Shown here in pieces: positions 58,261 to 63,685 of a stretch of 64,000 bases of DNA. Origin of the DNA: Candidatus Eiseniibacteriota bacterium (lineage in GTDB: Bacteria > Eisenbacteria > RBG-16-71-46 > CAVPCR01); contig CAWGMA010000001.1 of NCBI GenBank assembly GCA_963823555.1, forward strand, positions 576,001 through 640,000, read 5' to 3'. The notes below the pieces were generated by a model. The model made no database searches, had not been told where the DNA came from, and saw only the letters and a list, made by a program, of their open reading frames with translations. Both the position numbers and the translations under genes were made by a program. Every line of letters begins with the position of its first letter. The stretch's first letter is position 1.

Positions 58261-58290
58261 TTGACAAGTTGAAATCAACATCGCTATTTT
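58261..58290 (+). promoter_or_regulatory. sigma70-type promoter with a palindrome in the spacer
   Basis: TTGACA-18nt-TATTTT; GTTGA-AA-TCAAC at 58268-58279. Confidence 0.55.
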
Positions 58291-58381
58291 GGCCGCGTGC
58301 AACGAGTCGCATCGCTCGCACGATGCGAGCGCGGCTCGAGCCGCCCGCCGGCGGCCCCGGTTTACGAGGTGACATCCCGGA

Positions 58382-59482
58382 ATGGCCGAATCGAGCCCGA
58401 CACTCGACACGCTGCGCTTCGCGGACACCATCCTCGACAGTCTCGATCATGGCGTGCTGGCTATCGATGCGGAGAACCGCATCGTGTTCGTCAACCGTAT
58501 CGCCGAGGGCATCCTGAGCCTGACCCGGGAGGAACTCTGCGGCGCGGTGCTTGCCGACGTGCTCCGGACCCCGCGGAACTCACGGTGGCTGGTCTACGAT
58601 CCGGAGCGGGTCTCGACCGAGGAGTTCCACCGGGTGCGCCGAGTGAAGGACGGGAATCGGATCATCCTCCGCTCCCGCACCATTCCCTTGCGCGATGCCG
58701 AGGGAGTGGTGTTGGGCACGGCCGCCCTCTTCACGGAGGCGGCCGACGAGGATGAGGTCCTGCACACCGATCGCGACCGGCTGATCTCCCTGGGAGAGCT
58801 CTCGGCCTCGGTTGCCCACGAGATCCGGAATCCCCTGACCGGTATCCGCACAACCGTGCAGTTCGTCCAGTCGAAGCTCGAGGCGGGGGATCCCCGGCGC
58901 GAGGACCTGGATGATGTCATCAGCGAGCTCGATCGCATCGACCAGATCATCACGGACCTCCTCTTGTTCGCCCGCCCCAAGCCGGTGCGCTCGGCGCCGA
59001 TGGACATGAACCCGCTCGTGGGCAAGGTCCTGGACAGCCTGGCGGGCCGGTTCGAGGAGAGCAACATCGTCGTCAAGCGCATCTTCGCCGAGGACCTGCC
59101 CCCGGTGCTCGGCGACTCCGATCTGATGAGTCAGGTCTTCTTCAATCTGGTATCGAATGCCATCGAGGCCATGCAGCCCGGAGGGGGTGAGCTCAAGGTG
59201 ACGACCACGGTGCGGCGGAGTCCCTCTGGCAAGCAGCGGCTCAATGTGTTCGTCTCGGACACGGGCTGCGGCATTCCTGAAAAGCACATAGAGGAGATCT
59301 TCGCCCCGTTCTTCACCACCCGCTCGATGGGTACCGGGCTCGGGCTGTCCATTTCCTTGCAGATCGTCCGCGCCCACTCGGGCAGCATCGCCCCCCGCAA
59401 CCGGCGCAATGGCGGGGCCACGTTCCGAGTGAGCCTCCCGGCCCTCGGGGCCGGGGAGCCACCGGGAGGTGTAGAGGAGTGA
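58382..59482 (+). CDS. Cytoplasmic PAS-domain histidine kinase (NtrB/AtoS-like)
   Basis: PAS; H-box AHEIRNPL; 'NAIEA', 'DTGCG', 'FFTT..GTGLGL'; no TM. Confidence 0.93.
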   Translation: MAESSPTLDTLRFADTILDSLDHGVLAIDAENRIVFVNRIAEGILSLTREELCGAVLADVLRTPRNSRWLVYDPERVSTEEFHRVRRVKDGNRIILRSRTIPLRDAEGVVLGTAALFTEAADEDEVLHTDRDRLISLGELSASVAHEIRNPLTGIRTTVQFVQSKLEAGDPRREDLDDVISELDRIDQIITDLLLFARPKPVRSAPMDMNPLVGKVLDSLAGRFEESNIVVKRIFAEDLPPVLGDSDLMSQVFFNLVSNAIEAMQPGGGELKVTTTVRRSPSGKQRLNVFVSDTGCGIPEKHIEEIFAPFFTTRSMGTGLGLSISLQIVRAHSGSIAPRNRRNGGATFRVSLPALGAGEPPGGVEE

Positions 59483-60849
59483 AGCACTCGATCCTGGTGG
59501 TGGATGACGAGAGGTCGGTCCGGACCTCGCTCAATCGGGCCCTGTCCGATGCCGGCTTCGATGTCCAGACCGTGGATTCGGTGGCCGCCGGCCGCGCGGT
59601 CCTCCTCAATTCACCGCCCGAGGTGGTGATCTCCGATCTGCGCCTCCCCGACGGGACCGGGCTCGAGATCCTGCAAGAGGCGAGGCGGCTGAACCGCGGT
59701 ATCCAGACCATCCTGATCACGGCTTACGGGGATATCCACCAGGCGGTGGAGGCGATGAAGGCGGGGGCGGGTGACTTCCTGAAGAAGCCCTATGAGCTGG
59801 AGGAGCTTCTCCTCGCTGTGCGATCAGCGGTCCGCAACCTGGAGCGCGAGACCCAGCTCGACGGCTTCCGTCGCCGTGCCCTGGAGCGCCATCATGCCGA
59901 CCAGATGATCGGCCGGTGCCCGGCCATGCAGGAGATCGCCCGGCTCATCGAGAAGGTGTCGCATTCCGAGGCGACCTCCGTGCTCATCACCGGAGAGTCC
60001 GGAACCGGGAAGGAGCTGGTTGCCAGGGCCCTCCACTACGGCAGCGCCAGAGCTCCCTATCCCCTGCAGGAGGTGAACTGCTCGAGCTTCCAGGAGGCGC
60101 TTCTCGAGAACGAGCTCTTCGGGCACGAACGGGGGGCCTTCACCGATGCCCGGGAGGCCAAGAAGGGGCTGGTCGAGCTCTGTGACAAGGGCACCCTCTT
60201 TCTCGATGAAGTGGGGGAGATGCCGCTCTCGACTCAGGCCAAGCTCCTGCGTTTCATCGACCAGAAGACATTCAAGCGCGTGGGAGGCGTCCAGGATATC
60301 GTGGTGGATATCCGGATCGTCGCTGCCACGAACAAGGATCTGGATGACGCCGTCGCCGAAGGTTCCTTCCGGGAGGACCTCTACTATCGCCTCAAGGTCA
60401 TCTCGATCCATATGCCGCCGCTCCGCGATCGCGGCGAGGATATCCTGATCCTGGCCGAGCATTTCCTTGCTCAGTATAGTCGCAAGTTCCGGAAGCACTT
60501 CCGCCAGATATCTGATGCTGCTTCCAAGATCCTCCTGGCCTATTCATGGCCGGGGAACGTCCGGGAGCTCAAGAACGTGCTCGAGCGCGCGGTCCTCCTG
60601 GAGGATGGCGTTGAGCTCACCCCGGACCTCCTCCCGCCCGAGGTCACGCGCTGCGTCAAGGCCAACGGCTCCGGCCGCCTGCAGAGCCTCGCCGAGGTGG
60701 AAGAGAGCCATGTGCTCTCCGTTCTCGAGTCGACGGGATGGAACAAGTCGCGTGCCGCCCGCGTGCTCGGTATCTCGCGTCAAGGACTCCTCGACCGCTT
60801 GAAGCGCATGAAGGTCGAGGCAATCGAGCATGGCGCCGAGCGCGCTTGA
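59479..60849 (+). CDS. sigma54-dependent response regulator (NtrC/AtoC-like)
   Basis: REC, GESGTGKE, GAFTDA, 'REDLYYRL', 'WPGNVREL', Fis HTH. Confidence 0.95.
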   Translation: MKHSILVVDDERSVRTSLNRALSDAGFDVQTVDSVAAGRAVLLNSPPEVVISDLRLPDGTGLEILQEARRLNRGIQTILITAYGDIHQAVEAMKAGAGDFLKKPYELEELLLAVRSAVRNLERETQLDGFRRRALERHHADQMIGRCPAMQEIARLIEKVSHSEATSVLITGESGTGKELVARALHYGSARAPYPLQEVNCSSFQEALLENELFGHERGAFTDAREAKKGLVELCDKGTLFLDEVGEMPLSTQAKLLRFIDQKTFKRVGGVQDIVVDIRIVAATNKDLDDAVAEGSFREDLYYRLKVISIHMPPLRDRGEDILILAEHFLAQYSRKFRKHFRQISDAASKILLAYSWPGNVRELKNVLERAVLLEDGVELTPDLLPPEVTRCVKANGSGRLQSLAEVEESHVLSVLESTGWNKSRAARVLGISRQGLLDRLKRMKVEAIEHGAERA

Positions 60850-60994
60850 TCCATCTGCACGCTGCTCGACATCAATTACTACGGTTCGCGAACATCGATC
60901 GCTTCATGCGCCTCTCCTGATTGAGTACAACCATGCAAAGTGTGTGCACTCTGTCCATTAACTTGGCGGCTGGAGCGCTTCGCCATGGTCGGTT

Positions 60995-61007
60995 CAATCC
61001 ATTGATA
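60995..61007. promoter_or_regulatory. IHF consensus site
   Basis: CAATCCATTGATA matches YAANNNNTTGATW exactly; in a lower-GC intergenic region. Confidence 0.45.
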
Positions 61008-61197
61008 GGCAACGTGTTGCAGGCAATCGGCCGCAATCTCATATGGAGCTATCAAGAAACTGGGCAAAAAGGGTGGTTTGGAAGTGCCTTCTATGATGTA
61101 GAAGAGGTCGCTGGCGAGGGCCGGACGGTCAGCTCAATTCTATGCTGCTCTTCACGATACACGGGGCAGTGCGCTACCACGCCGTGAATTCGTGAAT

Positions 61198-61213
61198 TGG
61201 TACGCGGGTTGCA
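61198..61213 (+). promoter_or_regulatory. sigma54 (-24/-12) promoter
   Basis: TGGTACGCGGGTTGCA = GG-N10-GC, close to TGGCAC-N5-TTGCA. Confidence 0.75.
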
Positions 61214-61255
61214 TCTGTGACAGGCGAGGTGAGACCCGCTATGGAGGTCCTGGTC

Positions 61256-61630
61256 TTGTCAAAGAGCGTGCTGATCGTCGACGACGAGCGCCTCATTGCG
61301 CGTACGTTGTCCAGTGCGCTCATGGAGGCAGGATTCGATACGCGGGTCGCTTCGAGCGCCGAGACGGCCGAGAAGCAGCTCTTCAACGCCGATTCGGAGT
61401 TCGATCTGATCATCATCGACAACCGGTTGCCGAAGGGAAGTGGGCTCGGTCTCCTCAAGAAGCTGAAGGCGGGTAATGTCGATGTCAAAGTCATCCTCAT
61501 GACTGCCTACGACAGCCCGGAGACCAAGGCCGAAGCCAGGCGGCTGGGAGTCCAACGTTACATCACCAAGCCATTCGATCTCGGGGCGATGATCACTGAG
61601 GTCGAGACCTTGGTCGGTCCGGCGCGCTGA
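61256..61630 (+). CDS. Single-domain response regulator (CheY/Spo0F-like)
   Basis: VDDE, phospho-Asp 'IIDNRLP', 'MTAY', KPF; TTG after GGAGG. Confidence 0.9.
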   Translation: MSKSVLIVDDERLIARTLSSALMEAGFDTRVASSAETAEKQLFNADSEFDLIIIDNRLPKGSGLGLLKKLKAGNVDVKVILMTAYDSPETKAEARRLGVQRYITKPFDLGAMITEVETLVGPAR

Positions 61631-61684
61631 GCGCCAGGGTTCGTGCCCGGGTCAGAGACTGGTCTCTCACAGGGGGTAAACGGA

Positions 61685-62149
61685 ATGGCGGCTCGTAAGA
61701 AGGCCACGCGCAAGAAGGCCACGCGCAAGAAGGCCACGCGCAAGAAGGTTACGCGCAAGGCTGTGCGCAAGAAGGCAGTGCGCCGGAAGGTTGCGCGCAA
61801 GGCTGTGCGCAAGAAGGCAGTGCGTCGGAAGGTTGCGCGCAAGGCTGTGCGCAAGAAGGCCACCCGCAAGAAGGTTGCGCGCAAGGCTGTGCGCAAGAAG
61901 GCCACCCGGAAGGCAGTGCGCCGGAAGGTTGCGCGCAAGGCTGTGCGCAAGAAGGCCACCCGGAAGGCAGTGCGCCGGAAGGTTGCGCGCAAGGCTGTGC
62001 GCAAGAAGGCCACCCGGAAGGCAGTGCGCCGGAAGGTTGCCCGCAAGGCAATCGCCAAGAAGGCCACGCGCAAGAAGGCCACGCGCAAGAAGGCCACTCG
62101 CAAGAAGAAGGAACTGGCAGCCGAGCTTCCTTCGATCTTCACCATGTAG
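61685..62149 (+). CDS. Histone H1/Hc2-like basic repetitive DNA-binding protein
   Basis: 154 aa, over half K/R, built from KKATR/KAVR/RKVAR units including ~3x 54-nt tandem repeats. Confidence 0.8.
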   Translation: MAARKKATRKKATRKKATRKKVTRKAVRKKAVRRKVARKAVRKKAVRRKVARKAVRKKATRKKVARKAVRKKATRKAVRRKVARKAVRKKATRKAVRRKVARKAVRKKATRKAVRRKVARKAIAKKATRKKATRKKATRKKKELAAELPSIFTM

Positions 62150-62175
62150 GTCGGACGTTCGGGGCACGTCCTGAG

Positions 62176-62220
62176 GGGCGGTCCAGACCGGTGATCCCGG
62201 ACTGGGCCGCCCTCTCTTTG
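62176..62220 (+). terminator. Intrinsic terminator after the histone-like gene
   Basis: GGGCGGTCCAG...CTGGGCCGCCC then TCTCTTTG. Confidence 0.65.
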
Positions 62221-62283: not shown

Positions 62284-62838
62284 TCAGCGGCTGGTCTCTG
62301 TCGTGTCGTCCTCGGCACCATGGAAACGCAGGCCGAAGGCGATGTAGTCGAAGTCGTACTCGCTCGGCAGCGTGTAGCGGGCTTCGGTGTAGAGGTCGAC
62401 TTTGCTCCCATGGATGAGGCGTGCTCCGACGAATGCATGCCACTTGAGAGCACCCCGGGAGTCCGTGAGGACATCGCCGAAGTCGCCGAGGCTGCTCCAG
62501 GAGCCGACAACGTGAGCGCCAGGGCCGGTAGCCAGCCATGGGCTGAAGGCCCCGCCTTCGAAACCAGGGATGACGAAGCGCAGCAGCAGATAGGTGGACA
62601 ACGCCACGTTTGCCACATTGTCGCGGTAGGCGAAGTGGCCCTCGACGCGCGCGGGAAAGTCGAGATGGTAGCTGGGCGGGACGTTCCTGATCGGCAGGGC
62701 GACTTCGTACCCGCCCATAACCTCCCAGTCATAGAACCCCCGAGTGGCGGCCCCGGCGGCGAGCACATCGGCTGAGGCGGGCGAGGCGCCGGCGAGACCG
62801 ATGGCGAGCCCCACCAGGGTGATCGACCTGCGGAACAT
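62284..62838 (-). CDS. Small outer-membrane beta-barrel-like protein
   Basis: Signal peptide (ASA|D); amphipathic strands 'SPWLATGPG', 'LYTEARY', 'IAFGLRF'. Confidence 0.65.
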   Translation of the reverse strand: MFRRSITLVGLAIGLAGASPASADVLAAGAATRGFYDWEVMGGYEVALPIRNVPPSYHLDFPARVEGHFAYRDNVANVALSTYLLLRFVIPGFEGGAFSPWLATGPGAHVVGSWSSLGDFGDVLTDSRGALKWHAFVGARLIHGSKVDLYTEARYTLPSEYDFDYIAFGLRFHGAEDDTTETSR

Positions 62839-62872
62839 GGGGCCGCGCTTTTCACGCCGCCCGGTCATCATC

Positions 62873-63430
62873 TCAGTCGACACGGAGATCGCCCTCGCTC
62901 TCGAGGTCTCCCGCGAGGAAGTAGGCCCGATAGCTCCCCGGCGGCACGCCATCGAGCAGCCAGGGGACGTTCACTTCTCGATCCACTTCGGCAGCGTAGT
63001 TCTCGAGGAGGCGGGCCACGATGAGACCGCGGTCGTTGACGATCGCGAGGTTGACGCTCGGCCGACGCACGTCGAGACGGAACGTGATGACGATTTCTCT
63101 CGTCCCCGGGGGGGCCGGGTTCGGACAGGCGCTGATGGCGAGTCCGGCGGGGGGCGGTACGGCGGAGGCACCCCTTTCGGGTCCTTCTTCAGGAGAGGAC
63201 CTGCCGAGGGGACCCGCACACGGGGCCGGCCAGGCGTTTTCCCGGTCGTAGGAAAAGAAGGGACCTGGGTCGACGAGAGTCACGTCCTCATCGCATCCCG
63301 CGATCATGAGAAGCGTGCAGAGGGTCGCGGTGAGGAGGACCAGGGCCGGCCATCGGGGGGCGGAAACACGCGCCTGTCGATCCGCCAGAGGCGACTCGTC
63401 ACCACAGCGGTATCGCGTGGTCGATGTCAA
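62873..63430 (-). CDS. Lipoprotein with a FlgD-Ig/CTD-like domain
   Basis: TTG after GAGGAG; lipobox IAG-C; 'ACPNPA..ITFRL..LAIVNDRGLIVARL..W..PGSYRAYF'. Confidence 0.6.
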   Translation of the reverse strand: MTSTTRYRCGDESPLADRQARVSAPRWPALVLLTATLCTLLMIAGCDEDVTLVDPGPFFSYDRENAWPAPCAGPLGRSSPEEGPERGASAVPPPAGLAISACPNPAPPGTREIVITFRLDVRRPSVNLAIVNDRGLIVARLLENYAAEVDREVNVPWLLDGVPPGSYRAYFLAGDLESEGDLRVD

Positions 63431-63552: not shown

Positions 63553-63685
63553 AAAGAAAGTTCCCCGCCGAACATCGTTCTTTACGCCGGGGAGCACCCC
63601 TAACCTCGATGTCTTGCGACTCGTAACTTAGGTTGGGCGTCGGACGCGTAAATCTCAAATGCGGCAGGGAACTCCGCTTCGCTGA
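63553..63685 (-). ncRNA. Unassigned structured RNA (~115-nt rod hairpin with GCAA tetraloop and U-rich tail)
   Basis: Nested helices 63662-73/63559-70, 63646-52/63581-87, 63630-40/63596-606 and GUC-GCAA-GAC at 63611-20; promoter directly upstream. Confidence 0.6.

Follow-up and report, generated by a model that had tools for sequence, protein, structure and literature searches.

The window analyzed in this study, a DNA stretch of 64,000 nucleotides, belongs to Candidatus Eisenbacteria, an uncultured phylum. Near its end, it carries a cassette with the order kinase, NtrC-type activator, enhancers, sigma54 box, lone receiver, lysine-rich open reading frame (ORF) and terminator. The original prediction, made from the sequence alone, had placed in a probably uncultured lineage a soluble PAS kinase and an NtrC-type activator with a GAFTDA loop, a lower-GC intergenic region with an integration host factor (IHF) consensus and a GG-N10-GC promoter, a lone receiver, a Lys/Arg-repeat protein of 154 residues and a terminator. 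All of these parts were found in their places, and the two enhancer palindromes listed below are additions to them.

58261..58290, + strand: sigma70-type promoter of the kinase-activator operon, TTGACA-18-TATTTT (1 found versus 0.8 expected, weak alone)
58382..59482, + strand: soluble PAS-HisKA-HATPase histidine kinase, AtoS/NtrB-like (Pfam domains)
59479..60849, + strand: sigma54 enhancer-binding activator with a receiver domain (REC), an AAA+ domain with a GAFTDA loop and a Fis-type helix-turn-helix (HTH) (Pfam domains)
60952..60968, no strand: upstream enhancer palindrome, predicted activator site, consensus TGTCAA-N5-TTGACA (conservation)
60995..61007, − strand: exact IHF consensus site between the two enhancers
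61050..61066, no strand: downstream enhancer palindrome, predicted activator site (conservation)
61198..61212, + strand: sigma54 −24/−12 promoter, GG-N10-GC, predicted start near 61224 (conservation, rpoN)
61256..61630, + strand: lone receiver protein, TTG start most likely (an in-frame ATG also lies at 61241)
61685..62149, + strand: Lys/Arg/Ala repeat protein of 154 residues, a polycation like a histone H1 tail (composition, orthologous ORFs)
62153..62171, + strand: 3' tail hairpin with the conserved GGCACGTCC motif, candidate RNA-pairing segment (hairpin scan)
62173..62216, + strand: terminator-like hairpin closing the transcript (hairpin scan)

Pfam assigns PAS, HisKA and HATPase domains to the kinase, with no membrane domain among the matches, and REC, AAA+ and HTH_8 (residues 403-443) to the activator, whose gene start (59479) overlaps the end of the kinase gene (59482). 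The PAS domain is poorly conserved among orthologues, has no cofactor-ligand residue that is invariant among them, and matches the PAS domains of WalK, CitA and DcuS weakly. The ESM Atlas returned generic kinase clusters for the kinase and weak matches for the basic protein. The −35 element and spacing of the putative kinase promoter recur upstream of the kinase in two relatives (G001 and G003). Autoregulation of the kinase gene by the same enhancer was considered on account of sites upstream of the kinase in two inspected loci, and was rejected.

The locus resembles NtrB/NtrC and AtoS/AtoC in its soluble PAS kinase, its REC-AAA+-HTH activator, its upstream palindromic enhancers, its IHF-type site and its −24/−12 promoter next to the regulators. 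Unlike them, it falls below the NCBIfam equivalog cut-offs (274 versus 646 bits for AtoS, 442 versus 714 for AtoC and 407 versus 559 for NtrC), has an enhancer sequence of its own, and ends in a lone receiver and a polycation rather than in metabolic genes. The GC content of the intergenic region is 50-55%, compared to about 65% in its surroundings, as had been predicted. The next gene beyond the cassette is convergent; on the minus strand of the window, at 62284-63340, there are two unannotated, exported-looking proteins with no Pfam match, which also lie near the cassette in several families.

Conservation of the cassette in the phylum

IHF, sigma54 and sigma28 sites were sought with general consensus motifs. 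For the window taken by itself, an IHF match appears in 10 of 100 shuffles and two sigma54 matches in 47 of 100; as these values are within chance, the single-window statistics were set aside. Orthologous loci were compared instead. The main set contained 52 of them (34 from relatives and 23 from a search with the activator, minus 4 duplicates and 2 cut by contig ends, plus the window), of which 47 had the required minimum of 900 nt available downstream; a Lys-rich ORF had to lie within 1.2 kb, and a sigma54 box had to score at least 11 bits. The basic ORF was found in 44 of the 47 loci, the box likewise in 44, and two or more enhancers in 38. In the three loci missing the basic ORF, other DNA has been inserted after the activator, and in two of these the promoter and the receiver are located 2.2-2.3 kb further on. 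By contrast, among non-orthologous activator loci (52 of 57 long enough to be scored) there were one basic ORF, five boxes and no enhancer pair, while 14 paralogues from the genome of the window (G000) had no basic ORF, one box and no enhancer pair.

With the matrices fixed, the same features were sought in a held-out set of 24 loci (30 further loci minus 2 too short and 4 duplicates), including three families new to the analysis. The basic ORF was present in all 24, a receiver in 21, the box in 19, at least one enhancer in 23 and at least two in 19. The synteny search proposed with the original prediction, i.e., for the order kinase, NtrC-type activator, sigma54 box, receiver and histone-like gene in related genomes, therefore found this order throughout the phylum. 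As the predicted GG-N10-GC promoter is conserved in both the orthologous and the held-out loci, we regard the sigma54 box as real. The gene for sigma54, rpoN, which the prediction had also asked to be confirmed, is present in G000 (456 bits versus a cut-off of 277), a genome that is 92.5% complete and has four HU/IHF genes.

Of 201 phylum genomes, 185 (among them G000) have a kinase match at E ≤ 1e-60, and nearly all of these have just one. Five of the 16 genomes without such a match were opened: one (G054) holds the whole cassette, and the other four, all of family f12, are without it. In G054, the kinase gene is split by a frameshift with the rest of the cassette complete, reflecting either a sequencing error or decay. 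Among the matches listed, the best named ones for the activator are from Candidatus Eisenbacteria (48-63% identity), and those in other phyla show 40-46% identity; among the best 120 matches of the range search, all named records but one are from Eisenbacteria. The activator loop reads GAFTDA, GAYTDA or GAFTGA in 49 of the 51 orthologues with a readable loop, and the recognition helix carries SRQ[GS]L in 44 of 48 orthologues read.

Enhancers were counted in 48 promoters, four of the 52 loci having been skipped because the receiver pattern failed. These promoters contain 106 TGTCAA-N5-TTGACA sites, compared to 2.9 in shuffles; they stand upstream of the box in two or three copies, at set distances of 115-250 bp. 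An enhancer model with a 4-nt spacer drifted and was replaced by the one with a 5-nt spacer, and the IHF site of the window was rejected as a third enhancer as its spacing is 4 nt. Four enhancer pairs exist genome-wide in G000, and only the pair of the window precedes a sigma54 box, so that the regulon looks like one operon; no other G000 locus with an enhancer pair plus a box was found. A second pair of enhancer-like palindromes lies in G000 at C4:419191-419302, at the 3' end of the gene for another sigma54 activator; downstream of this pair there is only a weak box.

The exact IHF consensus that had been predicted at 60995 is present on the minus strand, but this exact form is not conserved, occurring in only 4 of the 48 promoters. 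What is conserved is its core, CAA-N4-TTR, which lies between the enhancers in 26 of 48 promoters versus 1.3 in shuffles (some copies reach into the edge of an enhancer); close to the promoter, it occurs in 13 of 48 versus about 1. A pattern resembling an SOS box in the promoter was rejected, as it is not conserved. The parts of the cassette are all known, and their combination is undescribed and phylum-wide; in the literature on Eisenbacteria and on histone-like proteins with RpoN, NtrC or sigma54, surveyed partly by titles and abstract openings, no description of the cassette was found.

The lone receiver, the basic protein and the transcript

The lone receiver predicted downstream of the box is present, with its start corrected to the TTG at 61256, a position conserved in 28 of 28 loci. 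Receivers start with GTG or TTG in 27 of 28 cases, while 44 of 50 basic ORFs start with ATG; the basic ORFs have strong ribosome-binding sites and the receiver starts are weak. The phosphoacceptor Asp and the conserved Thr and Lys are invariant in 30 of 30 orthologous receivers. In a tree of the 31 receiver domains of G000, the lone receiver is sister to the receiver domain of the activator (support 95/87), with a second lone receiver in the same group, and its helix-1 contact residues resemble those of the activator receiver. Plausibly, it is a feedback element that would compete for the kinase, and negative feedback fits with the receiver being made from the system's own target promoter. A precedent is Osp acting on CckA in Rhodobacter, a feedback inhibitor consisting of a receiver only (PMC9430884). 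As with Osp, a lone receiver gene is under the control of its own two-component system; the present system differs from it in the intact phosphoacceptor and the sigma54-type regulation, and its feedback inhibition is predicted.

The basic protein of 154 residues described in the original prediction is there, with 46 Lys, 34 Arg and 2 acidic residues (52% Lys+Arg), and is encoded by repeats of 15 to 54 nt. Complete orthologous ORFs (45 of them) range from 13 to 227 residues, with 56% Lys+Arg, 0.4% acidic residues and 1% Pro. In family f10, which has no receiver, 105-164 nt separate the box from a peptide such as MAAKKKAAKKKATKKKAAKKKK (20 promoters); as the promoter leads straight to the peptide there, the peptide must be taken as the conserved product. 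It is under coding constraint: in 13 copies of a 22-mer, 13 Lys codons are invariant, and residue changes are confined to Ala, Gly and Val. Because lengths from 13 to 227 residues have all been kept, the polycation appears to act by its charge and not by a fold. The alternative that the short peptides are attenuators or leader peptides was rejected, as the genes downstream of them vary (uvrA, a galE-like gene, rarA or convergent genes, judged by eye). A search with a peptide of 37 residues was discarded as insensitive, since it missed five genomes in which such peptides are present.

With Hc2, BpH1, Hq1 and ScvA, the basic protein shares short basic repeats, evenly spread charge, next to no acidic residues and strong length variation. 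Hc2 consists of consecutive pentamers of two basic and three small residues (PMC2848022). The present protein differs in that its pentamers mostly have three basic residues (22 of 27, with a charge pattern of period 4-5), in that it can be as short as 13 residues, and in that the Pfam HC2 cut-off of 40 (PF07382) is missed by both the window protein (18.2 bits) and the 227-residue form (32.7 bits), three shorter forms giving no match. A second Lys/Ala-rich repeat ORF was seen in G000 at C1:2298562-2299335 (minus strand), following a tRNA-like sequence and preceding a peroxiredoxin-like gene, without a sigma54 box. At C1:1494660-1495163 (minus strand), an HU/IHF gene is followed by a basic ORF of 31 residues, which we take to resemble the ribosomal peptide bS22.

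Most spacers between the receiver and the basic ORF lack a hairpin terminator. RNA contigs from two studies (X1 and X2) match 61247-61700 and 61262-61700 with 0 mismatches, bridging the receiver and the start of the basic gene, where the stretch covered by the comparison ends (61700). A contig from a third study (X6) spans 61417-61670, and contigs from X9 represent relatives of the window on the same part. No contig of at least 95% identity lay on the kinase or the activator in X1, X2 and X6, and 60774-61241 was uncovered, which is not evidence that the regulators are silent. The bridging contigs start 23-38 nt after the predicted start at 61224, a weak hint that fits a start near this position and a shared transcript.

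Function of the polycation

The synteny, the enhancers, rpoN, the loss of the receiver in f10 and the RNA contigs all bear out the original claim of a self-contained sigma54 switch with a basic protein as its output. We hold it very probable that the wiring is as described (activator, enhancers, sigma54 box, polycation); given this wiring, the polycation likely acts chiefly on the nucleoid, a resting form accounting for a smaller share of that likelihood. As a whole, we propose with a probability of roughly 0.5 that the kinase phosphorylates the activator, which binds the enhancers and fires the sigma54 promoter for the receiver and for a polycation that condenses or shields the chromosome. 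The best reading of the cassette is that of a signal-tuned, self-limiting supply of a generic polycation that condenses nucleic acids.

Judging from its sequence, the kinase-activator operon would be transcribed from a housekeeping-type promoter, and a cytoplasmic signal would activate the kinase. Bound to the conserved TGTCAA-N5-TTGACA sites, which lie 115-250 bp upstream, the activator would open the sigma54 promoter with the aid of an IHF-type bend. One transcript, as the bridging contigs suggest, would carry the receiver with its weak start and the polycation with its strong start. The receiver might then drain phosphate from the same kinase or block it, resulting in a self-limiting pulse, while the polycation would act on DNA first and probably on RNA too, by analogy with Hc2, H1 tails and AlgP. 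As a result, the nucleoid state would be adjusted reversibly, which need not mean a spore-like form.

Several observations weigh against this proposal. The matrices were trained on the first locus set and related genomes are not independent, so that the counts above are tallies and not tests. The helix-1 similarity score of the window receiver ties with those of two other receivers. The transcript is known from RNA contigs only, from runs chosen because they hold part of the stretch and having no paired DNA run, in which starts, strand and level are unreadable. K/A-rich repeats have roles at polyphosphate granules and in mRNA binding as well (PMC9239181, PMC12818456). Finally, four f12 genomes (G014, G021, G027 and G032) have lost the kinase, the activator, the enhancers, the box and the receiver at the syntenic site but retain a peptide of 17-18 residues; hence, the switch is dispensable there.

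The most serious alternative, although an unlikely one, is a developmental switch that produces dormant or dispersal cells whose nucleoid is condensed, comparable to the elementary bodies of Chlamydia and the small cell variants of Coxiella. It would account for a dedicated, phylum-wide switch with one protein output, and the products span the sizes from ScvA-like peptides to Hc2-like proteins, Hq1 and ScvA being enriched in the Coxiella small cell variant (PMC4766238). The phylum also seems to hold a non-flagellar sigma28: FliA/WhiG passes the cut-off in 187 of 201 genomes, whereas flagellin is found in 69 of 201, in none of the 41 genomes of family f9, and not in G000. In G000, a sister cassette at C1:1158026-1165665 comprises a PAS kinase, an activator, a weak sigma54 box, a lone receiver, a FliA/WhiG sigma factor, a GGDEF protein and a receiver-kinase hybrid. 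Of 20 other loci fetched, 10 have kinase and activator before the sigma factor, and one more has the end of an activator there (11 of 20 in all). In G000, a bactofilin-like gene (pattern at C2:403103, minus strand) and an ORF of 106 residues (pattern at C1:1486227, minus strand) are preceded by sigma28-type patterns and are candidate targets of this sigma factor. However, in flagellated families the sigma factor sits in the flagellar operon (genes judged by eye) and may thus be a flagellar relic, and no sigma28-type box precedes the basic ORF in 49 of 50 loci.

The loss of the switch in f12 also speaks against a dormant form. In the three f12 genomes with upstream DNA, the peptide lies behind the promoter sequence that precedes the kinase in G037, and rpoN has been kept. 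As it survived the deletion, the peptide must be useful without the switch, and growing cells presumably tolerate it, unless that promoter is under some regulation of its own. In addition, the cassette transcript occurs in RNA runs of three studies, and no imaged cell of the phylum came up in the literature, going by titles and abstract openings. Bordetella produces an Hc2-like protein, BpH1, during exponential growth and can do without it (PMC2848022); with four genomes keeping the peptide without the switch, a basic repeat protein by itself is no mark of dormancy. Of the original interpretation, therefore, the sigma54 switch with a basic output stands, while nucleoid compaction or a dormant form remains a prediction.

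The parallel to the CtcB/CtcC-sigma54 system of Chlamydia, drawn in the same interpretation, turns out to be looser than it had seemed. Shared features are a sigma54 two-component pair (CtcB/CtcC being compared by description), a Lys-rich repeat protein of variable size, and a FliA-type sigma factor in genomes without flagellin. On the other hand, hctB is described as having no sigma54 promoter and CtcC as having no DNA-binding domain (PMC7482065), and sigma28 binds hctB (PMC12282069), whereas the activator of the cassette has an HTH and the basic gene lies directly under a sigma54 box.

Somewhat less probable again is that, under the same regulation, the polycation acts mainly on another polyanion, either mRNA and ribosomes, damping or activating translation, or polyphosphate granules. 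Hc2 binds RNA better than Hc1 does and represses translation (PMC2848022), the KPAA repeats of PhaF bind mRNA (PMC12818456), AlgP spaces polyphosphate granules (PMC9239181), and peptides of 13-22 residues may be short for bridging DNA. A PPK2 gene is present in G000, but PPK1 was not found in this 92.5% complete genome. Like AlgP and PhaF of Pseudomonas, the basic protein consists of disordered basic repeats resembling H1 tails; unlike them, it has no N-terminal folded domain and no KPAA repeats. Its 1% Pro and the lack of any attached granule-targeting or oligomerizing domain speak against this alternative.

The 3' tail and the meaning of the cassette

The predicted terminator corresponds to two hairpins at 62153-62216 (z-score −2.9), although a plain terminator scan did not call them, and in the 45 tails folded, the ORF is followed by a long hairpin whose sequence varies. 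The GGCACGTCC motif precedes the terminator in 29 of these tails. This raises the alternative that the working product is partly or mainly the 3' tail, i.e., a small RNA from the 3' untranslated region, with the short ORF as a companion, which we consider improbable. In its favor are complements to the tail that match by lineage. At 63553-63681 (minus strand) lies a rod-shaped RNA about 125 nt long with its own sigma70-type promoter. It is conserved in 23 of 41 genomes, where it often comes directly behind the cassette; in f9, this neighboring RNA has a complement of 14-15 nt to the tail. Rfam gave no match for the cassette or for this RNA, which is not the canonical 6S RNA of G000 but has a closing stem like that of the latter. 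A paralogue of it at C1:925017-925163 (minus strand) in G000 presents an 11-nt complement in a loop, which G001 and G004 retain even though the motif is missing from the G001 tail. Another paralogue, near C1:1496410-1496510 (minus strand), has a sigma54-type box upstream, as it does in G005 and G032. In f10, the 5' end of lexA is complementary to the tail over 10-12 nt in three of four genomes, and in the fourth with a G-U pair.

Against such a role, the motif is missing in 16 of the 45 tails, including that of G001, whereas none of these loci lacks the basic ORF. G000 has seven other such 11-mers, one of them in a paralogue RNA. The lexA gene of the window genome matches the tail over only 6 nt, no partner RNA for the tail was found in f10, and 18 of 20 further f10 matches lie in neither such an RNA nor a lexA leader. 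As the partners differ by family, RNA pairing is a lead for an added post-transcriptional layer and not a mechanism. Upstream of lexA, a TGCAC-N4-GTGCA palindrome overlaps the promoter in many families and is a candidate SOS box.

That the genes are chance neighbors, with the basic ORF a spurious repeat or transcribed independently of the activator, is very improbable and largely refuted by the synteny, the controls and the held-out loci. The enhancer spacing, the spacers mostly free of terminators and the bridging contigs speak against it too, even though neither DNA motif exceeds chance in one window alone and such activators can act at distant promoters.

A bolder idea, which we consider doubtful, is that of a hidden developmental programme. 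Sister sigma54 cassettes, one making the polycation and a 3' RNA that pairs with lexA mRNA or 6S-like RNAs and the other making a non-flagellar sigma28, would together lead to a resting or dispersal form with condensed chromatin, in which peptides of 13-22 residues would serve as packers the size of protamines. It would parallel the chlamydial cycle in free-living cells, although wired differently.

The signal-tuned supply of a polycation acting on the nucleoid remains the preferred reading. The cassette is the first concrete regulatory trait for a widespread uncultured phylum, with a bare polycation like a histone H1 tail placed directly under sigma54 control. It is invisible in most annotations because its short forms are below the usual limits of gene calling. 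The natural series of forms (13 to 227 residues, with or without the receiver, and with or without the switch) offers a ready-made experiment on the minimal polycation that reshapes a nucleoid and on the effect of a feedback receiver. If a resting form were involved after all, this would explain the persistence of these bacteria in soils and sediments and supply a marker transcript for it.

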